DNA from: a virus
IMG/VR virus record: IMGVR_UViG_3300032105_000042
Span: 15,693 to 79,692 of that record
Length of the DNA: 64,000 nucleotides
Reading direction: 5' to 3' (one strand)
Notes under the pieces: model-generated
The model's database searches: none
What the model saw: the letters and a program-made list of their open reading frames with translations, nothing else
Told to the model about the DNA's origin: nothing
Translations under genes and position numbers: made by a program
In this document: positions 3,872 through 58,772 of the stretch, in pieces
Numbering within the stretch: position 1 is the first letter of the stretch
Layout of the letters: each line of letters starts with the position of its first letter

Positions 3872-4512
3872 TCCTCGAGTTGATATTCTGACAGGCAGGC
3901 AGCCACCTCTGACAACACGTCACGGTCTTGATCGAAACCAAATAGTCGTGCCAGCGTGAGGTTAATCGGCTCCACTGACGAGTGACCCTTCAAGCGACGA
4001 CGCGTGAGAGCAGACATGGGTTCGACCCCCAGGGCTTCTCTGAACAAAGCAACACACACACCCCGAAGTTCGTCAGGTACACACTTGATGACATCCAAGC
4101 ACACCTCCAGTTCGCTCACACAGTCATATACAGCCACGCCATTCGTTCCCGCAATATCAATGTCCCCACCCTCCTCATTTGTGAGTGAGAAACACCTGTT
4201 CTCGTAACCAACATTGAAAGGATTGGGAAAGCAGGCTGAAGCAGAACTGCTCAACAAAAACCTCAATGCCACCTTGTAGATACACAGAAACTCATCCTCG
4301 TCAGAAACATGTGCGTGATAGACACAAACCCTCCAGTAAATGTAGAAAGCAGTCTGCTGCAAATCATCATCATCACACACAGCAGCAACCTTCCAGCGGT
4401 TTCTTCGGAGATACGAGAGACCCCAGTCCTTGATCTTACCCTCGAACGCCGGGCTGCCATTCAACCTGTTACGCGAGAACACCTGGCTAACACTTACTCC
4501 ACTCTTCGTCAT
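3868..4512 (-). CDS. Hypothetical protein, weak resemblance to a sigma factor region 2
   Basis: ORF packed between neighbours with 4-nt overlap; DDDDLQQTAFYIYWRV resembles the sigma region 2 DLxQ motif. Confidence 0.4.
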   Translation of the reverse strand: MTKSGVSVSQVFSRNRLNGSPAFEGKIKDWGLSYLRRNRWKVAAVCDDDDLQQTAFYIYWRVCVYHAHVSDEDEFLCIYKVALRFLLSSSASACFPNPFNVGYENRCFSLTNEEGGDIDIAGTNGVAVYDCVSELEVCLDVIKCVPDELRGVCVALFREALGVEPMSALTRRRLKGHSSVEPINLTLARLFGFDQDRDVLSEVAACLSEYQLEE

Positions 4513-11560: not shown

Positions 11561-11971
11561 GGCACGATTTTTCCTCCCAGGGTCCCCATTTTTCTTTACA
11601 TTCGGGACGGCGGTACCTATATTAGCTGTAGGGGTTAAAACCCCTAACCCTAGTGTCATATGCTAGGGCGTCCCCCGGAGGGGGCCTTGGGGAAGAAGCC
11701 TAACCGCCACCCCTTAAAGGTAAAGCTGGAGATTCCCCCCTTCGACGGTTCGGTGGCCCGGTTATCGGTATAGTGGTGGTGCCCGGTCATAGGTCAGGAA
11801 GTGCCTCGTTCCGGACGCGTGTGATGCGCGACGTGGAGACCGTGGGTGGCTATGGGTTGTTGAGGTGTGTTCAGGCCCGTATTACTTATTTGCTGCCCTT
11901 GGCCGAAGCGTCGTAGCAGCGCGACGATGGGCGGGGGAAAGCTCTGACGAGGATCTCCTCCTCCTATGAAA

Positions 11972-12047
11972 GTCGAAACTCGGCCTGCCTTGTGCAAGCC
12001 GGGTCCACCGAGCGCTGGCCAGCCCGGTGCTGACGACGACAGGCCAG
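11972..12047 (+). ncRNA. Type II hammerhead ribozyme HH1 (cleavage after C12005)
   Basis: GTC-GAAA-CTCGGC/GCCGGG-TC-CACCGAGC/GCCCGGTG-CTGACGA-C-GAC; pseudoknot CTGGCC/GGCCAG. Confidence 0.85.
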
Positions 12048-12063
12048 ACCATAGGAGGAGATC

Positions 12064-12291
12064 ATGAAAACTTCAGCAAAAGAGTTCTCAGAGGCTTTGC
12101 AGAGCCTAGTCGATCAAGTCATCGATGGTGACGAAGAGTTAATGAACGAGCTCGCGTACGACCCAAAGCTCTTTGGGGATGGATCAACCCAGACGTACAG
12201 CGAGCTTGGTATCCTTACTACGGATGCTGGCTTCGTCCTTCGGACAGCCGATGGTTCCGAGTACCAGGTGACCATTGTCAAGTCTAGTTAG
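12064..12291 (+). CDS. Small early hypothetical protein
   Basis: RBS CATAGGAGGAGATCATG; ends LTTDAGFVLRTADGSEYQVTIV. Confidence 0.8.
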   Translation: MKTSAKEFSEALQSLVDQVIDGDEELMNELAYDPKLFGDGSTQTYSELGILTTDAGFVLRTADGSEYQVTIVKSS

Positions 12292-12354
12292 TCGAAACGC
12301 TCCAACCGGAGCGTCTGCCAGGTGTGAGCTACCTGGCACTGATGAGACAGCTCA
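12291..12354 (+). ncRNA. Type II hammerhead ribozyme HH2 (cleavage after C12315)
   Basis: GTC-GAAA-CGCTCC/GGAGCG-TC-TGCCAGGT/ACCTGGCA-CTGATGA-GAC; pseudoknot TGAGCT/AGCTCA; fully canonical core. Confidence 0.95.
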
Positions 12355-12370
12355 ACCATAGGAGGAGATC

Positions 12371-12547
12371 ATGAGTAAGCTAATCGACATACGGATAACA
12401 GTTTCCGCCCCGGCCGACGCCTGGAAAACGATGGACGACGATGCTTTGGGGGCTGTCACCGAGGCGTTCGAAGACTTGTTTGCAAACTTTGAAATGGAAA
12501 CCCAAGATCTTGCGTCAAAGTATGGTTTCCAGACCAGCGTCGATTAA
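12371..12547 (+). CDS. Small early hypothetical protein (58 aa, not in ORF track)
   Basis: MSKLIDIRITVSAPADAWKTMDDDALG...QTSVD*; conserved RBS; stop abuts HH3. Confidence 0.75.
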   Translation: MSKLIDIRITVSAPADAWKTMDDDALGAVTEAFEDLFANFEMETQDLASKYGFQTSVD

Positions 12548-12614
12548 GTCGAAACCGGGCCAACCAGCCCGGTCTGCCGAGGGATGAGCTCCCGACACTG
12601 ACGATGATAGCTCA
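12548..12614 (+). ncRNA. Type II hammerhead ribozyme HH3 (cleavage after C12574)
   Basis: GTC-GAAA-CCGGGC/GCCCGG-TC-stem I with bulge-CTGACGA-T-GAT; pseudoknot TGAGCT/AGCTCA. Confidence 0.8.
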
Positions 12615-12630
12615 AGTATAGGAGGAGATT

Positions 12631-12912
12631 ATGTTTGATTGGCAAAGGTTTTGTTTCTACAAAGCTATTCCCGATGGGTTTCTTACCCAGCATAAGGGAA
12701 GAACCTTCAACACCTCTTGGGATGGAGCCTGGGTTCTCGATAGCTGGAACGATTTGAACGTCCCCTACTTCACCCGTCCCGGGCGAAAGAAGCGGTTCGT
12801 CGTTCCACATCTCGAACGGCGGCTGATCTCACTAGCAAAGAAAACCGTCGTAACGGTAAAGTCAATACGAAGGAAACGCCTCCCCAAGCATCTGAGGCGA
12901 CGGCACCTCTAG
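12631..12912 (+). CDS. Small early hypothetical protein with Arg-rich tail RRKRLPKHLRRRHL
   Basis: Conserved RBS; stop overlaps HH4. Confidence 0.8.
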   Translation: MFDWQRFCFYKAIPDGFLTQHKGRTFNTSWDGAWVLDSWNDLNVPYFTRPGRKKRFVVPHLERRLISLAKKTVVTVKSIRRKRLPKHLRRRHL

Positions 12913-12977
12913 TCGAAACCGGGCTGGGTAGCCCGGTCGGTTTGATCTGACCTACCAACCCTGACGATGACAGGTCA
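12912..12977 (+). ncRNA. Type II hammerhead ribozyme HH4 (cleavage after C12938)
   Basis: GTC-GAAA-CCGGGCT/AGCCCGG-TC-GGTT..AACC-CTGACGA-T-GAC; pseudoknot TGACCT/AGGTCA. Confidence 0.82.
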
Positions 12978-12998
12978 AGACAACTATAGGAGGAGATC

Positions 12999-13268
12999 AT
13001 GTGTTACATTATCCAGACAGACATGAGTACAGGTCAATCCTCCCAGCCCCTGTTCTGGACTGGGACCGAGGTCGTCGGCATCTGCCGCTCTGGCGAGGCG
13101 AGAGTCTATAGCAGCCGCTCTCAGGCAGCGTCAGCCCTTGCAGCTATCCCCTCGAACGTCGTCCGGTTCTACGATCTACACATACGACCCGAGGGTGAGC
13201 GCTCCCGGTTGCCACAGTTGAGAGGTATCCGTGGGATGAAGGGTAATCCGGGATACGATCTCGGTTAA
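12999..13268 (+). CDS. Small early hypothetical protein
   Basis: Conserved RBS TATAGGAGGAGATCATG. Confidence 0.75.
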   Translation: MCYIIQTDMSTGQSSQPLFWTGTEVVGICRSGEARVYSSRSQAASALAAIPSNVVRFYDLHIRPEGERSRLPQLRGIRGMKGNPGYDLG

Positions 13269-13269
13269 A

Positions 13270-13335
13270 GCCGAAACGGGAGATCATACTCCCGTCATCG
13301 TGAGCCAGCTACTCACGGTCTGATGAGGCAAGCTA
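13270..13335 (+). ncRNA. Type II hammerhead ribozyme HH5 (cleavage after C13296)
   Basis: GCC-GAAA-CGGGAG/CTCCCG-TC-ATCGTGAG/CTCACGGT-CTGATGA-GGC (stem II covaries GCC/GGC); pseudoknot AGCT/AGCT. Confidence 0.92.
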
Positions 13336-13349
13336 CATAGGAGGAGATC

Positions 13350-13574
13350 ATGAAAGTTCGGGAGCTAATCAAGGAGCTGGAGTAGTTCGACGGCGACATG
13401 GACGTCTGCTTTGCCTACAACTATGGCGACCATTGGAAGACAACGGTCTCGCCGAAGGTGAATAAAGTGGACGAGTGTGGCATCCGTTACTCGGACTATC
13501 ACAACACATACCGTGTTGTGGACGAGGACGACAAGGAGTCACCCGAGGAGCACGCGGTCGTACTGTTCGGCTAG
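13350..13574 (+). pseudogene. Small phage protein gene interrupted by an in-frame TAG at codon 12
   Basis: MKVRELIKELE*FDGDMDVCFAYNYGDHWKTT...VVLFG*; strong RBS; TAG at 13383-13385, frame open on both sides. Confidence 0.7.
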
Positions 13575-13575
13575 A

Positions 13576-13648
13576 GCTGAAACGGCGGAGTAACACCTCT
13601 GCCGTCGCCCCGAGCACTGACCCTGTCGGGGCCTGATGAGGCAGGGTC
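13576..13648 (+). ncRNA. Type II hammerhead ribozyme HH6 (cleavage after C13606)
   Basis: GCT-GAAA-CGGCGGAG/CTCTGCCG-TC-GCCCCGA/TCGGGGC-CTGATGA-GGC; pseudoknot GACCCT/AGGGTC. Confidence 0.92.
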
Positions 13649-13672
13649 GCACAACCCCCATAGGAGGAGATC

Positions 13673-13885
13673 ATGAACAAAAAGCAGTTTTGGATCAACC
13701 AAGTCGCCGCACAGCGCCAGTGGATCGACGCGCACGGCGGGTGCGAAGCAGGCTATGTGGAACGCTACGGTTCAGCGTCCAATAAAAAGCACTACGGTGA
13801 CGGTGGCGAAGCCATCTGGAAGGCCGACAAGGACGAGCTTGACAAGTGCTTATCGAGTGCTCGTCAACATGGTGCCCTCATTTAA
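13673..13885 (+). CDS. Small early hypothetical protein
   Basis: Conserved RBS CATAGGAGGAGATCATG. Confidence 0.8.
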   Translation: MNKKQFWINQVAAQRQWIDAHGGCEAGYVERYGSASNKKHYGDGGEAIWKADKDELDKCLSSARQHGALI

Positions 13886-13917
13886 CATGAGATCGGCTGA
13901 TAAGAAGGAGAGTGCCA

Positions 13918-14135
13918 TGGAGCACATAACTGTAAGGGCCGAGCGAGGCTCGGCAATACTAGGTCGTCTTACCAAATTCTCCAAGGGCTGGCGGTTCTAC
14001 CCGTGGACGGAGAGCCGTCGGCCGTCAACCCACTACTGGCCGACCGCCGAGGAGGCCATCCCGCGCTGGCTCAAAAGCGCAAGTTCCGGCTGGACAAACC
14101 AAAGTCATCCTGACGCAGCCCGAAGCCCATCCTAA
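13918..14135 (+). CDS. Small early hypothetical protein
   Basis: ATG 13918 after AAGGAG: MEHITVRAERGSAILGRLTKFSKGWRFYPW. Confidence 0.6.
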
Positions 14136-14166
14136 GGAGGATGGGCTTCCAGATACGTCAGTATCA
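14109..14166 (+). promoter_or_regulatory. Unclassified structured leader, motif B copy 1
   Basis: Hairpin GAAGCCCATCCT-aagg-AGGATGGGCTTC followed by CAGATAC-GTCA-GTATC, then the conserved RBS. Confidence 0.55.
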
Positions 14167-14183
14167 AAACATAGGAGGAGATC

Positions 14184-14915
14184 ATGAACGACAAGTCAAA
14201 GATCATAGACAAGATCCAGAAGCTGCTGGCCCTGTCTAAGTCGCCCAACGAGCACGAGGCAGCGCTCGCGGCAGATAAGGCACAGGAGCTCCTGGCTACC
14301 TACAACATCGACGTGTCCGAGGTCGAGGCCGAGGAGGCCAAGACGTCGGTCATTAAGGACGCCGTCAAGACCAAGCGCAAGGCTTGGCAGCGCGTCGTCC
14401 GGGCGGCAGCAGCTAAAATGTACTTCTGCGAGTACTACTACTCCACGTATGACGTGGAAGCACCGCAGCGCAAGCGAGGCTTCGCGACGTACGACCTCCA
14501 CTTTTACGTCGGCGAGCCTCACAGCATCGCCGTCGCCAAGATGATGTCGGAGTATCTGATAGCCACCGTCTGGCGACTAGCCCGCGACGGTTCGCGAGCA
14601 TACCCCAAGCGGGAGAGGAGACGCTATCGGAACTCCTTCGTCATTGCCTGTACGTACAGGCTCCGAGCGCGGATACTGGAGCGCATCCGGGAGAGCTCCC
14701 AGACAGGAGTCACTACACACGAGGGTCGGAACCTCCCGGCCCTGGCCTCGCTGTACGACCAGACCCGGCATCGGAACCAAGCCTTCATCGAGAAGCACGT
14801 GGGAAAGCTGGGTGCTGGCAGAGGTCGGATGAGCGGCTCACACGATGCTGGTAAATTAGACGGTCACGAGGCTGGTGGGACTATCAGCCTGGACAAGCAG
14901 ATCGGAGGTAAGTAG
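14184..14915 (+). CDS. DUF2786-domain protein
   Basis: KIIDKIQKLLALSKSPNEHEAALAADKAQELLATYNID N-terminal signature. Confidence 0.85.
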   Translation: MNDKSKIIDKIQKLLALSKSPNEHEAALAADKAQELLATYNIDVSEVEAEEAKTSVIKDAVKTKRKAWQRVVRAAAAKMYFCEYYYSTYDVEAPQRKRGFATYDLHFYVGEPHSIAVAKMMSEYLIATVWRLARDGSRAYPKRERRRYRNSFVIACTYRLRARILERIRESSQTGVTTHEGRNLPALASLYDQTRHRNQAFIEKHVGKLGAGRGRMSGSHDAGKLDGHEAGGTISLDKQIGGK

Positions 14916-14918
14916 CAA

Positions 14919-14986
14919 GTCGAAACCGGGGCACCCCGCTCCGGTCGTCGTGGCCCAGGCAGCCACGGCCTGATGAGACAGCCTGG
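14919..14986 (+). ncRNA. Type II hammerhead ribozyme HH7 (cleavage after C14946)
   Basis: GTC-GAAA-CCGGGGC/GCTCCGG-TC-GTCGTGGC/GCCACGGC-CTGATGA-GAC; pseudoknot CCAGGC/GCCTGG. Confidence 0.95.
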
Positions 14987-14999
14987 ATAGGAGGAGATT

Positions 15000-15608
15000 A
15001 TGTATTATGTTACTATGGACAGCGAGGGCGACCGCATCCTGGAGGATGCAGAGATCGTGGAGTACAGGACGCACTCCAAGGCCAAGGACCATCTCCTGGA
15101 CAGCTTCTCCGAGGTAGAGGAAGGCCAGGAAATCGAGATCGTGTCAGGTCACTTCCAGAACTGCTGGAAGAGGGTCGAGCTCAACGGGATAGCAAGAGTG
15201 GACATCGATCCCTTCTGCTGGGACGAGGTCTGCATTCAGCATCCGGATAAACATCCGGGAGACAGTACATACTGGATAACGCCCGGACCGGAGGTCCTGG
15301 TGGCCAAGCTCGTTAATGTAGAAACAACGTCGTGGGAGGGTATCGTGAACCTTAACATCACCTCAACCACGGTCGGCCCGTTCGAGGACGGCTCCTTTAA
15401 GGCAGGCGTGCGCGTAGAGACGAGCGAGCAGACCTCGATCGTTTACGCCCGGCAGGGCCCGTTCCCGACCAGTGACGAGGCTCACCACGTAGCGCAGGCG
15501 TTCCTGCAGTACGTGTGCGAGCTCGTGGACAAAGCGCTCACAGAAGTAAGGTACGACAAGCTGATCGTGAGCTTGCTGCTGGACGACCCCCCGTCCGGCG
15601 GTGGCTAA
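15000..15608 (+). CDS. Early hypothetical protein (possibly two fused modules)
   Basis: Conserved RBS GATAGGAGGAGATTATG. Confidence 0.7.
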   Translation: MYYVTMDSEGDRILEDAEIVEYRTHSKAKDHLLDSFSEVEEGQEIEIVSGHFQNCWKRVELNGIARVDIDPFCWDEVCIQHPDKHPGDSTYWITPGPEVLVAKLVNVETTSWEGIVNLNITSTTVGPFEDGSFKAGVRVETSEQTSIVYARQGPFPTSDEAHHVAQAFLQYVCELVDKALTEVRYDKLIVSLLLDDPPSGGG

Positions 15609-15619
15609 CCCGGACCCTA

Positions 15620-15690
15620 GTCGAAACAGGGGAGCGCTGTCTCCCCTGTCGGAGCGGGTTGCTCTCCCGCTCCCTGACGAGACAGAGCAG
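15620..15690 (+). ncRNA. Type II hammerhead ribozyme HH8 (cleavage after C15650)
   Basis: GTC-GAAA-CAGGGGAG/CTCCCCTG-TC-GGAGCGGG/CCCGCTCC-CTGACGA-GAC; pseudoknot TTGCTCT/AGAGCAG. Confidence 0.95.
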
Positions 15691-15706
15691 ACCATAGGAG
15701 GAGATC

Positions 15707-15883
15707 ATGTCCCTACACCGTAGCACTCAAATGATTCTCGACACCGTCTCCAAACCTTACATGGACGAGGGCGATAGGAGGGCACTTGCCAATGACATCT
15801 CAACGCGCCTAGACAGTGGCGACAGCGACGAGAAGGTTGCGGCCTGGGCCGCTAAGATAGTCAAGACATTTGAGCCGACGTAA
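15707..15883 (+). CDS. Small early hypothetical protein (58 aa, not in ORF track)
   Basis: MSLHRSTQMILDTVSKPYMDEGDRRALAND...FEPT*; conserved RBS. Confidence 0.75.
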   Translation: MSLHRSTQMILDTVSKPYMDEGDRRALANDISTRLDSGDSDEKVAAWAAKIVKTFEPT

Positions 15884-15884
15884 C

Positions 15885-15928
15885 CCTGAGCGCATCAAGA
15901 GGTGCGCTCTCAGATGCGTCAGCATCGT
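15885..15928 (+). promoter_or_regulatory. Unclassified structured leader, motif B copy 2
   Basis: CTGAGCGCATC-aaga-GGTGCGCTCTCAG hairpin followed by GATGC-GTCA-GCATC, then the conserved RBS. Confidence 0.55.
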
Positions 15929-15946
15929 AAACCATAGGAGGAGATT

Positions 15947-16510
15947 ATGACATCGCAATCAACCGAGTACGCAGCGACCCCAGAGCCGTGGAAGCTGCCA
16001 CGGAACCACCCGTGGTGGTGCCCCAAGGGTGACCTGCTCCACGTCCCGCGCGCTCTCAGAAGAGCGAAGTGGACCGAGAAGCAGTGGGTGCGGCACCGCG
16101 AGGCTCAGCAGCGGAGACGAAGTGTGTCGTGGCATCGCACAGTCATCAAGACGGACGCCGCCATATTCGCGCCGGTCATCGCCCGAAAAGCCGAGAAGGA
16201 GAGGCGAGCGAAGCGGAGACTGGAGCGGCTAGAAATCAAGGCCGAGAAAGTGAAGCGTCGCCACCTGGAAACAGAGGAGGCCAATCGGGTCCTGGACTGC
16301 ATCGCCACTCGGGCGACCACCGCCCATCGGATAGCGAAGGCCCTAGACCTGGACCAGCGAATGGTTCGTCGCGCAATACGACGGCTGCTGCGAGAGGATA
16401 AGATCGAGAAGACGAGCCCAAAGGTGTACGATCTCTGCGGACGTGGGCAGGCACCCAAGCCAGTACGGAGGAAGCGTCTCCCCAAGCGTCTGCGGCGACG
16501 GCACCTCTAG
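15947..16510 (+). CDS. Basic protein with C-terminal winged HTH and tail RRKRLPKRLRRRHL
   Basis: VLDCIATRATTAHRIAKALDLDQRMVRRAIRRLLREDKIEK wHTH pattern. Confidence 0.7.
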   Translation: MTSQSTEYAATPEPWKLPRNHPWWCPKGDLLHVPRALRRAKWTEKQWVRHREAQQRRRSVSWHRTVIKTDAAIFAPVIARKAEKERRAKRRLERLEIKAEKVKRRHLETEEANRVLDCIATRATTAHRIAKALDLDQRMVRRAIRRLLREDKIEKTSPKVYDLCGRGQAPKPVRRKRLPKRLRRRHL

Positions 16511-55541: not shown

Positions 55542-58500
55542 TCACCCACAGTCCGAGTAGCCGCAGCTGCCGCAGGTCGCGCAGCCCTCCCGGTGATACA
55601 GCGTCGGGTTCTGGCACCGGGGGCAGATCTCGCCTGCCGGCGGTGCCTCCTCTTCCTCAACCTTCATCTCCGCGTCCTCCGGGTCCTGGGGGGACACGGC
55701 CTCCCCCTCATCCAGCAGACCGATCTTGAGGAAGTGCTGTCGGACCACGGAACCGATCATAGCGACCAGACTCGGCACGTACTTCCCCCCTATCCAGTGG
55801 CCACCCATGCTACCAGAGTGCACCTGCTCCAACTCCTCCAGGAGGAAGGTAACGTCACCTCCCCGCCGGAAGATGGCCGAGATCGTCCTGGTCAGCGCCG
55901 TGATCCACTCGTGGTGCTTGACCGACTTGGAGTTGATGAAGATCTCGAAGGGACGACGCTCTCCCCTCTCGTCCACGTAGTCGTTCATGGTGACATAGAA
56001 CGCCTGGTCGAGAGAAGGCCAGCGGACCTTGTAGGTGCAGCCGTCCAGCTCCGCCGGTCTGGAGGCAACCGGCTGGGCCTGGGGCTGGTCCTCCCCCTTC
56101 TCCTCGGGCACCGACATGACCGAGCCGCGCTCCGGGCTGGGCCTGTAGGTAGTGCATCCCTTGAGCCCCATGTCGTAGGCCATCCGGTACACGTCCTGGA
56201 AGTCCTCCAGGGTCATGTCCTCCGGGCAGTTGATGGTCTTGGAGATGGACGCGTCGATGTACTTCTGGCAGACCTCCTGCATGACTAGGTGGTCCTGGAC
56301 CGACAGCTCCAGCGCTGTCACCATGTAGTCCGGCAGCGAGTCCCACGCCAGCAGCTCGCCAGACTCACCAAACTTCCTCTGGTACAGGCGATATCCGTAG
56401 TCCTCGACGTGCTCGAACTCCTCGAGCGTCCCGTCGGCCTGCACTATCTTGCGCTGGTACCACCACGCGAAGGTTGGCTCCAGTCCTGAGGAGACGTTGC
56501 CGTAGTAGATGGAGGTCGTGCCCGTCGGCGCGATAGTCAGCAGCACACCGTTGCGGATCCCGTGGTCGTGGATCCCCCCTCGTATGAGCGTAGGCAGCGG
56601 CAGGACGAACTTACCCTCCAGATACTTGTCGCGATTGAACAGTGGAAATGGACCTCGCTCCTTGGCAAGGTCGATCGACGTGAGGTACGCAGTGTCCCTG
56701 ATAACGCGCATTATTTCCCCAGTTAGCAGGACGGCCTCCTCGCTACCGTATCGAGAGCACATCTGCTGAAGAAGGTTGCCGAGCCCGGTGATGCCGAGAC
56801 CAACTCGCCGCTTGCTCAGTGCCTCCTTCCTCTGCTCCTCCGTCGGGTACTGCGTCACGTCCAGGACGTTGTCGAGGAAGCGAACGCCTATCTGAGTTGT
56901 GTCCCTGACTAGATCCCACTTTACCTCGGCCTGCTCGGTGAAAGGATGCTCTACCATCACCGCCAGGTTGACGGCCCCGAGGTTGCAGTCGCCATTGGCC
57001 GGGAGAGGCTGCTCGCCGCAGTTGGAGACTAGGATACCCTCGTTCTCACCACACACCACGAAGAACCTTCCCGTCTCGCTCACAGTACCACAGTAGACGT
57101 CCTCCGTAGCATCCAACTCTAGAACCGAGACTACCTTGTGATTACCACCAAGGCGATCCATGACCATAGCTTTGCTACATCCAACCTCGTTAGCAATTGC
57201 CTGATAACTTAGACCTTCAGCACGGAGAGACACTAGTTTCTCAGTCTCTATATCATGTCTATAGTTGCCATTCTTCCCTCCAGAGAAGTCCTCATAGTGG
57301 AAGTGGTTCCTCTCCGGAAACCTACGCATAGGGTTCTGATCACCCATCATCTTCATAGCGTTGTGTTCCGACGCAGGAAGTATCTCGATGTTGTCTGGTC
57401 TATTATTCTTCCTGTCCTCATCCTTGTGATGCCCATGCTCCCTTGGATAGTCAGGCCGACGACCATGCTGATACTCACAGGCAACATAGTGCTCCATGAC
57501 AGTCTCGCAGGAGCCACGGAGAGCAATGTAGCCTTTCTGATTAGCCAACCCCCTGTAAACACTGCATATCCGCTGGCCAGCCACGAGACTTCCCGCCTGT
57601 ATTCTACGCCCATCAACCAGGAAGAATATGTGCTCGGGTGTGCACCGCACCCGAGTGACACTCTTGTAACGCTTCCCATTACCTCTAAACGTGACCTCTA
57701 CAAGATTAGCACGTCTGCGCGTCAAACGAGGGTTCTTCATCTCCCGATAAGCAAGATGTCCATCTTCTAACTGTGTCAGAACCAGGACCGACTTACGAGA
57801 ACGAGCAAGCTCATCAAACCTCCGTGGGCCATATGCTGTCCAAACTTTGCTATCTCCCGTCAGGCAAGGATTGGTGCAGTGTATTGTCTCTGTATACCAC
57901 AGGTTGTTCCACTGGTTAACGCGATCTATGAAGATCACGCCTGGCTCAGCATAATCATAGGTAGACTTAGTAATCAAATCCCAAAGATAGCGGGCCTCAT
58001 ATCGTTTATAAACATAGAAAGGAATATCATGGAAGTGATCACCGGGATCCACGACCTCCACGTGTTTCCCATCCGCGCGTGGCACCGAGAAGCCAAGATC
58101 CCACCCGAGATCATTCTCTACACAATACATAAAGGAATTGGTTACGAGGACAGAGACATTGAAGTTAGTGAGCCTCCCCTTCTCGTGTTTGGCCGTCACG
58201 AACTCCTCCAGGTCCGGGTGATCGCAGGAGAGTGTAGCCATCATGGCACCACGCCGCGACCCCGACGACATGATAGTGGCACACATGGAATTCCACATAT
58301 CCATGAACGGCAGCGGACCGGAGGAGGCAGAGCCGGTCCTACGTACCACGGCACCCCTTGGTCTCAGCGTTGAGAAGTCCATTCCGATACCCCCACCCAT
58401 CTGCTGCGTGTAGGCAGCCACGCTCAGCGCGTCCATTATCCCGGCGCTATGTCCGCCGTCCTCCTCCGTCGCCATGGAATCCTCGATCTCCGGGGCAACG

Positions 58501-58772
58501 AAGCAGTTGAGGAGTGTCACCCTCTTGTTCGTGCCAGCCCCCGCGTGGATACGACCCGCCGGGCACCACTCCCGGCGGTTCATGGAGTCCAGGGCACGCT
58601 GAGCATCCAGGCCATTTGGTCCATCCGAGTCATCATAGTACACGCCTAGCACTACCCGCTCGTTGCTCTCCTCGGGGCTCCCCTCAGTCGAGGAGCCGTC
58701 CGGCTGCTTCCAGCGGTACTTCTCGTCCCACACAAACCTAACTATGGGCTGATCGTAAACCTCCGACATCAC
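55542..58772 (-). CDS. nrdJ: Class II (B12-dependent) ribonucleotide reductase with an intein and C-terminal TSCPD/Zn-ribbon domains
   Basis: PAGRIHAGAG, TLLNCFV, GGGIGMDFS.LRP, RRGAMM, NP[intein]CGEQPL, TIAPTGT, IDASISKTIN, KGCTTYR. Confidence 0.93.
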   Translation of the reverse strand: MMSEVYDQPIVRFVWDEKYRWKQPDGSSTEGSPEESNERVVLGVYYDDSDGPNGLDAQRALDSMNRREWCPAGRIHAGAGTNKRVTLLNCFVAPEIEDSMATEEDGGHSAGIMDALSVAAYTQQMGGGIGMDFSTLRPRGAVVRRTGSASSGPLPFMDMWNSMCATIMSSGSRRGAMMATLSCDHPDLEEFVTAKHEKGRLTNFNVSVLVTNSFMYCVENDLGWDLGFSVPRADGKHVEVVDPGDHFHDIPFYVYKRYEARYLWDLITKSTYDYAEPGVIFIDRVNQWNNLWYTETIHCTNPCLTGDSKVWTAYGPRRFDELARSRKSVLVLTQLEDGHLAYREMKNPRLTRRRANLVEVTFRGNGKRYKSVTRVRCTPEHIFFLVDGRRIQAGSLVAGQRICSVYRGLANQKGYIALRGSCETVMEHYVACEYQHGRRPDYPREHGHHKDEDRKNNRPDNIEILPASEHNAMKMMGDQNPMRRFPERNHFHYEDFSGGKNGNYRHDIETEKLVSLRAEGLSYQAIANEVGCSKAMVMDRLGGNHKVVSVLELDATEDVYCGTVSETGRFFVVCGENEGILVSNCGEQPLPANGDCNLGAVNLAVMVEHPFTEQAEVKWDLVRDTTQIGVRFLDNVLDVTQYPTEEQRKEALSKRRVGLGITGLGNLLQQMCSRYGSEEAVLLTGEIMRVIRDTAYLTSIDLAKERGPFPLFNRDKYLEGKFVLPLPTLIRGGIHDHGIRNGVLLTIAPTGTTSIYYGNVSSGLEPTFAWWYQRKIVQADGTLEEFEHVEDYGYRLYQRKFGESGELLAWDSLPDYMVTALELSVQDHLVMQEVCQKYIDASISKTINCPEDMTLEDFQDVYRMAYDMGLKGCTTYRPSPERGSVMSVPEEKGEDQPQAQPVASRPAELDGCTYKVRWPSLDQAFYVTMNDYVDERGERRPFEIFINSKSVKHHEWITALTRTISAIFRRGGDVTFLLEELEQVHSGSMGGHWIGGKYVPSLVAMIGSVVRQHFLKIGLLDEGEAVSPQDPEDAEMKVEEEEAPPAGEICPRCQNPTLYHREGCATCGSCGYSDCG
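57021..57866 (-). mobile_element. Intein (282 aa) carrying an HNH homing endonuclease
   Basis: Starts CLTGDSKV, ends EDVYCGTV...FFV...ILVSN followed by +1 Cys; internal EHYVA..HGHHKDEDRKNNRPDNI and HTH. Confidence 0.92.

Follow-up and report, generated by a model that had tools for sequence, protein, structure and literature searches.

What a second kind of structured leader does among small phage genes, where ten other junctions carry hammerhead ribozymes, is the question raised by this locus. Individual phage genes can be flanked by clustered type II hammerheads (Rfam RF02276; Perreault et al. 2011, PMC3088659), and for self-cleaving ribozymes between small phage genes a role in polycistronic RNA processing has been suggested, but not established (PMC3088659, PMC6765202). 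An initial annotation of the same DNA described the second leader, here called motif B, and proposed it to be a new self-cleaving or nuclease-processing motif, or else an operator for the winged helix-turn-helix (wHTH) protein encoded behind its second copy. Comparative modelling and the analogy with phage T7 lead us to read motif B as a signal for processing by the RNase III of the host, akin to T7 R0.3 and R1.1, with a probability of about 0.7, cutting being predicted.

The small-gene array and its two elements

The window, by which we mean the whole analysed stretch of 64,000 nucleotides, comes from a virus record of 79.8 kb. Genes for terminase, portal, tape measure, primase and DnaB mark it as a tailed phage. 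Between about 11.97 and 17.8 kb, co-oriented small genes follow one another in series with a common ribosome-binding site (RBS), ATAGGAGG; we infer that they are co-transcribed, and read the array as a polycistronic transcript. As for the ten hammerhead junctions, five lie above the Rfam gathering score, one is found at E 0.003 and four are recognized by the core pattern. A sigma-70-like site at 11595-11623 was no better than chance level and was discarded. The features used below are the following.

11971-17443, + strand: small-gene array; type II hammerhead motifs at ten junctions, motif B at two (Rfam scores, core pattern)
13917-14135, + strand: small gene upstream of copy 1
14110-14165, + strand: copy 1 of motif B, the putative RNase III rod together with the 5' hairpin expected on the cut product (fold, alignment; covariance model 66 bits, as a training member)
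14110-14117, + strand: 5' arm of the copy 1 lower helix, partner 14154-14161; contains the TGA at which the upstream gene of relatives ends
14122-14149, + strand: copy 1 upper hairpin, 12 bp, AAGG loop
14151-14152, + strand: copy 1 predicted scissile bond, CA^GAU
14152-14165, + strand: copy 1 short hairpin GAUAC-GUCA-GUAUC, which excludes the lower helix; predicted blunt 5' end of the downstream product
14171-14178, + strand: array RBS ATAGGAGG 3' of copy 1
14184-14915, + strand: DUF2786/DUF7168 gene downstream of copy 1
15707-15883, + strand: 58-aa gene upstream of copy 2, its TAA on the 5' arm of copy 2
15875-15926, + strand: motif B copy 2 (fold, alignment; covariance model 57.7 bits, as a training member)
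15887-15910, + strand: copy 2 upper hairpin
15912-15913, + strand: copy 2 predicted scissile bond, CA^GAU
15913-15926, + strand: copy 2 short hairpin GAUGC-GUCA-GCAUC, which would cap the wHTH message at its 5' end
15947-16510, + strand: 187-aa protein with a weak winged-HTH match, the downstream passenger gene of copy 2

Both elements are real and not due to chance, as the initial annotation had it: they precede the same RBS ATAGGAGG, and their folding z-scores against shuffles range from -3.9 to -6.9. The 16-mer CAGATRCGTCAGYATC matches the window at 14150-14165 and 15911-15926 only. The presence of both copies thus stands, with the extent of copy 2 corrected, since it starts at about 15875 and not at 15885, where the 5' arm CGACGUA had been missed; the CCYGA given as a common start is not conserved among the copies. 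Of the two, copy 1 departs further from the canonical form, with an extra mismatch in the lower helix and a precursor fold that is ambiguous and context-dependent. Compared with L366, L367 and L573, the gene upstream of it has a 1-nt deletion in an A-run near 14071-14074, either a true mutation or an assembly error, and reads past its natural TGA at 14111-14113; the relatives terminate at the TGA within motif B. Such a frameshift would carry ribosomes into copy 1.

Several other observations were made in the window. A 143-nt duplicate (12859-13001 and 16457-16599, 89% identical) spans a gene 3' end, a hammerhead and the RBS, and suggests shuffling of gene-plus-element units. The sequence TCCTCCTATGA occurs at 11955-11975, just 5' of the first hammerhead, and again at 17945-17975, past the last gene; it is complementary to the array RBS ATAGGAGGA, with which it could pair. 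The junction at 13886-13917 lacks hammerhead and motif B alike, and its RBS (AAGGAGAG) is not that of the array; so it is also in L362, L366 and L573. The last array gene (17462-17818) has a Lys/Ala/Thr-rich repeat tail of histone-H1-like composition. On the minus strand, 36116-40702 encodes a head morphogenesis protein of 1528 aa with ADP-ribosyltransferase-like and head-protease matches, and at 55542-58772 the ribonucleotide reductase large subunit is split by an HNH endonuclease-like segment, possibly an intein.

Homologous copies and their common fold

We collected 48 distinct copies of motif B, 39 for training and 9 found later (pattern scans, protein-led contig retrieval, covariance model). 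Exact-pattern scans gave mostly chance matches, and folding was used as a filter. Some belong to close relatives whose arrays mix hammerheads with motif B (L362-L371, L573, L574); others come from several viral and metagenomic contigs in which no Rfam ribozyme is found, and from a complete 50-kb unrelated phage (L061/G001), free of hammerheads, in which six copies sit at the junctions of one gene run (L061 3023-5845, minus strand); one divergent copy lies in a provirus record (L302). Similar-looking candidates in L114 and L387 were dropped from the set. The reverse strand of L114 (about 4090-4150 and 4335-4385) has a different two-copy hairpin repeat with CAGATGCGTCA, to which the motif B model is blind. 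A strict pattern gave no convincing copy in GTDB genomes, hence no host from there; blastn did not find the motif in cultured phages, and protein-led searches starting from an L061 gene led to no further copies.

The common fold is a rod of about 22-24 bp, which usually begins on the upstream stop codon and has a 2-nt mismatch zone in the middle; it is made up of a lower helix of about 8 bp, two mostly mismatched central positions, a C-G pair, an R-A mismatch and the upper hairpin. On the alignment, 84.7% of the cells in the rod are paired, against 32-39% in slid controls, and 16 of 19 rod pairs have compensatory changes on both sides. Conserved bases are Y-A-R-C on the 5' arm, A-U and then G-C in the upper stem, and G-A-U-R past the predicted cut. 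The pairing CUGACG/CGUCAG, noticed earlier as an alternative in copy 1, is in fact this conserved lower helix, formed in both copies and in the homologues. The short hairpin of the initial annotation does exist in most copies, but the structure described there is only half of the element: the short hairpin is built from the 3' arm of the rod, is incompatible with the lower helix, and is absent from a few copies, e.g. L377 and L424. Nor is its loop an invariant GUCA, which occurs in 9 of 48 copies against 28 with GCCA. Two further observations concern single homologues or groups of them: at L385 1469-1502 the upper hairpin is deleted, the lower helix and the GCAUC strand being retained, and in L380, L412, L430, L440 and L446 a repeated CCCACGATG lies between motif B (or the gene end) and the RBS.

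The fold also bears on the question whether motif B acts as DNA, either as an operator of the wHTH protein or as an attC-like recombination site. Copy 2 does precede the weak wHTH gene, genes of the array are shuffled among relatives, and the opposite strand would have G-T where the lower helix has an A-C mismatch. However, upper stems read on the mRNA strand contain 53 G-U pairs and 1 A-C, so the mRNA strand is the folding one; UUCG and GCAA loops cap several copies, and the arms show compensatory covariation, not a fixed palindrome. The distribution is also against it. The wHTH gene is led by motif B here, by a hammerhead in L573 (72% identity) and by neither in L367 (87%), and a search, run without a positive control, found no wHTH match in five other motif-bearing records; the complete phage with its six copies has no such match. 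Shuffling of the array can be put down to the shared RBS repeat. On strand asymmetry and distribution the operator idea is not supported, and we regard a DNA-level site of either type as extremely improbable.

Search for a ribozyme

That motif B fits no known ribozyme consensus is borne out by Rfam. Searches at gathering and E-value thresholds, over the window and 36 homologous or related loci, gave hammerheads only and no family at motif B, and the two window copies had no match at E up to 10. Neither twister, pistol, hatchet, HDV-like nor hairpin ribozymes matched it with their Rfam covariance models, and the CUGANGA text of the hammerhead core is present in 2 of 48 copies only. RAGATH-type motifs (Weinberg et al., reviewed in PMC6765202), which are uncharacterised and lie close to genes for self-cleaving ribozymes, are likewise structured RNAs set among ribozymes and small phage genes; as far as the families in Rfam 15 go, none matches motif B.

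On the alignment itself we weighed a novel small self-cleaving ribozyme whose core would be the central internal loop or else a pistol-like pseudoknot of the 5' arm and the short-hairpin loop. Numbered from the predicted cut, CA stands at -2/-1 in 36 of 39 training copies, a C-G pair involves +1 in 48/48, and an R-A mismatch at +2 is found in most; moreover the element fills hammerhead slots without an Rfam match of its own. Twister-sister-like ribozymes cut at C^A, and twister-sister and lantern ribozymes (PMC11620745) also have two stems around an internal loop that holds a CA dinucleotide. Yet their required loop strands, GC(A/U)AG and GCUC^A(A/U), as taken from PMC11620745 and from twister-sister sequences, were found in 0/48 copies, and the loop of motif B is variable: CC, GG, GU and AA also occur at -2/-1, and in L412 the centre is fully paired. 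In addition, both the length and the sequence of the upper stem, which would be peripheral in a ribozyme, are limited to exactly what RNase III needs, a constraint not expected of a ribozyme, and some copies lack the short hairpin. For the variable centre, the missing strands and this constraint on the stem, we consider a new ribozyme very unlikely, and equally so a hammerhead-interchangeable new class of self-cleaving RNA or a switch between RNase III substrate and catalytic pseudoknot. Our first model had the 5' arm pair with the short-hairpin loop, the stem remaining closed, in an H-type or pistol-like pseudoknot; it was dropped because the 5' arm also pairs with the UGC of the stem, and the continuous rod that results is incompatible with the short hairpin. 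We also rejected a hammerhead acting in trans on GUC, since most copies have GCC at that place.

RNase III determinants in motif B

[quoted passage not shown] With the cut placed at CA^GAU, pairing in motif B extends from -12 to +10, a duplex of roughly two helical turns. This register was first chosen by analogy with T7, and the determinants peak only with the cut before GA (2.13 of 3, other registers at most 0.82). At pb2, A-U or U-A is present in 36/39 training copies, the rest of the stem being 19% A-U, and in 8/9 held-out ones, and both window copies have A-U there; at pb1, 28 of 39 training copies have G-C and 8 have G-U, with G-C again in both window copies. The U-G at distal-box position 2 (db2) is found in 19/39 training and 8/9 held-out copies. 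These counts come from copies that share descent, and the held-out ones were retrieved by a model favouring the same pairs; the search patterns left the upper stem free and included GATRC. Position db1 is mostly C-G and not U-A, as in T7 R0.3 and R1. The upper hairpin has a mode of 26 nt (11 bp plus 4) in 18/39 copies, a range of 22-31 nt, and at least 24 nt in 36/39. Among the 48 copies, 3 have G-C at pb2, and 3 hairpins of 22-23 nt are under the E. coli minimum. The lower arm carries a second proximal box, symmetric to the first, with A-U at +3 and C-G or U-G at +4 each in 37/39 copies; this explains the conservation of Y-A-R-C and G-A-U-R, bases that were partly selected by the search patterns. 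Altogether motif B has on average 2.6 of 6 determinants, against 3-5 in T7 sites, on a scale that is based on E. coli and may not be that of the host.

In the window, the upper hairpin of copy 1 has G-C, A-U and A-U at proximal-box positions 1-3, G-C at position 4 and U-A at db2; that of copy 2 has G-C at position 1, A-U at 2, U-U at 4, and U-G at db2. [quoted passage not shown] Such a pair is found in copy 1 and in about half of the training copies overall; the other half are mismatched as T7 sites are. This leaves room for a reading in which RNase III or another dsRNA-binding protein binds the rod and cuts it poorly or not at all, thereby stabilising the message or modulating translation. 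The mismatched half speaks against this, and so do two things that make sense with cleavage: the short hairpin begins exactly at the predicted cut and would be sensible only after it, and motif B stands in for self-cleaving hammerheads ahead of orthologous genes. As pb4 is next to the bond on the 5' strand in the assay of those variants, G-C there may simply enforce a single cut, although it may also mean weak cutting. We judge binding without cutting to be unlikely, and keep the RNase III processing signal as our preferred reading. The phage contig, which is 79% complete, yielded no gene for RNase III, so the cutting enzyme would be that of the host.

Likeness to the sites of phage T7

The T7 sites, read from the sequence record, have the layout AAG...CUU-NNN^GAU, the same as motif B. 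Their cut coordinates, which we take to be those of Dunn and Studier 1983 and checked against the sequence only, fall on UAU^GAU for R0.3, R0.5 and R1.1; the positions we presumed for R3.8, R6.5 and R13 disagreed with the sequence, and these sites were left out. A profile trained on motif B upper stems alone, with T7 outside the training set, was run over the 1,752 hairpin registers of T7, where R1.1 ranked 2nd, R1 5th, R0.3 18th and R18.5 24th, while R4.7, R1.3 and R0.5 ranked 83-85; shuffles of the columns equalled this ranking in 7 of 1,000 cases. The covariance model alone did not detect the T7 sites significantly, R1.1 appearing at E 0.18 only.

Like R0.3, R0.5, R1, R1.1 and R1.3 (PMC1540722, PMC3867540), motif B is a rod that fills the gap from a stop codon to the next RBS on a polycistronic phage message, with an upper helix of about 11 bp, G-C and A-U at pb1 and pb2, U-G at db2 in about half of the training copies, a mismatch zone at the cut and GAU after it. 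The differences are that in motif B the mismatch zone is symmetric and one base longer on the 5' side, C-G stands instead of G-C at -7, G-C is frequent at pb4, the lower-arm sequence is conserved, and the motif is intermixed with hammerheads and hosted by unrelated uncultured phages. A further one is the dedicated 3' strand, which gives a blunt 5' hairpin in 35/39 products, whereas in the predicted folds of the five T7 early sites +1 is paired in none, R1.1, R0.5 and R1 pairing from +2. From the determinants and the T7 profile ranks, our models favour the nuclease-processing alternative of the initial annotation, specifically a T7-type RNase III site; its self-cleaving alternative is not supported, with no Rfam ribozyme match, a twister-sister-like loop in 0/48 copies and central bases that vary.

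Junctions where hammerheads and motif B interchange

Orthologous genes in the mixed arrays are led by one element or the other in three cases, the wHTH gene above being one. The 89-aa gene at 12999 has a hammerhead here and motif B in L367 (93% identity). For a 142-aa gene, L362 has the hammerhead and L366 has motif B (73% identity). The DUF2786 gene keeps motif B upstream in 8/8 close relatives with upstream DNA, their upstream genes differing. Swaps may arise via recombination at the shared RBS repeat, and therefore they show tolerance of either element, not selection for exchange. Hammerheads in the array also begin on stop codons and have a hairpin on each side of the cut, their stem III hairpins being shorter (mode 18-19 nt) than the upper hairpins of motif B. 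Motif B shares with the clustered type II hammerheads the slot and the inferred purpose, i.e. single-gene mRNAs with a hairpin on either side of the cut, but it has no CUGANGA/GAAA core and would need a host enzyme; it would leave 5'-P and 3'-OH ends, where hammerheads leave 5'-OH and a cyclic phosphate.

A model of cleavage and refolding

During transcription, the 5' arm, the upper hairpin and the GAU-GC-GYCA segment are predicted to fold into the two-turn rod, which is favoured in 28/39 precursors in predicted folds. Host RNase III would then bind both of the symmetric boxes and cleave the CA^GAU bond, probably on this strand alone because of the mismatches at the stagger. The upstream message would retain a 3' hairpin of 11-12 bp, a known stabiliser after single-strand RNase III cleavage (PMC3867540). 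On the downstream side, the released GAUGC would pair with GCAUC and give a blunt 5'-terminal hairpin about 20-25 nt 5' of the RBS, which would shield the new 5'-monophosphate end. A paired 5' end resists 5'-end-dependent decay in E. coli and B. subtilis. In the predicted folds of the cut products, +1 is paired in 35 of 39, and the RBS lies 16-34 nt past the predicted cut. The short hairpin is, on these models, most likely a post-cleavage 5'-terminal cap. With a hairpin on each side of the cut, the ends would have the architecture of those left by the neighbouring hammerheads, which would make the two devices interchangeable.

Two mutually exclusive folds, together with an in-frame stop on the 5' arm in 42/45 copies, would also suit a cleavage-free switch for translational coupling, in which a ribosome stopped on the 5' arm melts the rod, the short hairpin forms and the next RBS is tuned. 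Neither fold hides the RBS, however, hammerheads of the array begin on stop codons just as well, and the pattern of proximal and distal boxes would be left unexplained, so that we find such a switch highly improbable as the whole account, though it could act on top of RNase III cleavage.

Discussion

RNase III sites of this kind are well known, and on the processing-signal reading motif B involves no new kind of chemistry. In the literature searched, whose coverage is incomplete, we found no description of mixed hammerhead/RNase III arrays in which the two elements swap, nor of refolding into a blunt 5' hairpin. The interchange suggests that hammerhead and motif B alike divide a long message into stable pieces of one gene each. 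Should motif B indeed be an RNase III site, the interchange provides comparative evidence that both devices make monocistronic, hairpin-capped messages, and the orthologue pairs led by motif B or by a hammerhead would form a natural pair for comparing ribozyme with host enzyme, and 5'-OH with 5'-phosphate plus hairpin. The 5' hairpin that folds after the cut would be a compact design, and could help to insulate genes in synthetic operons.
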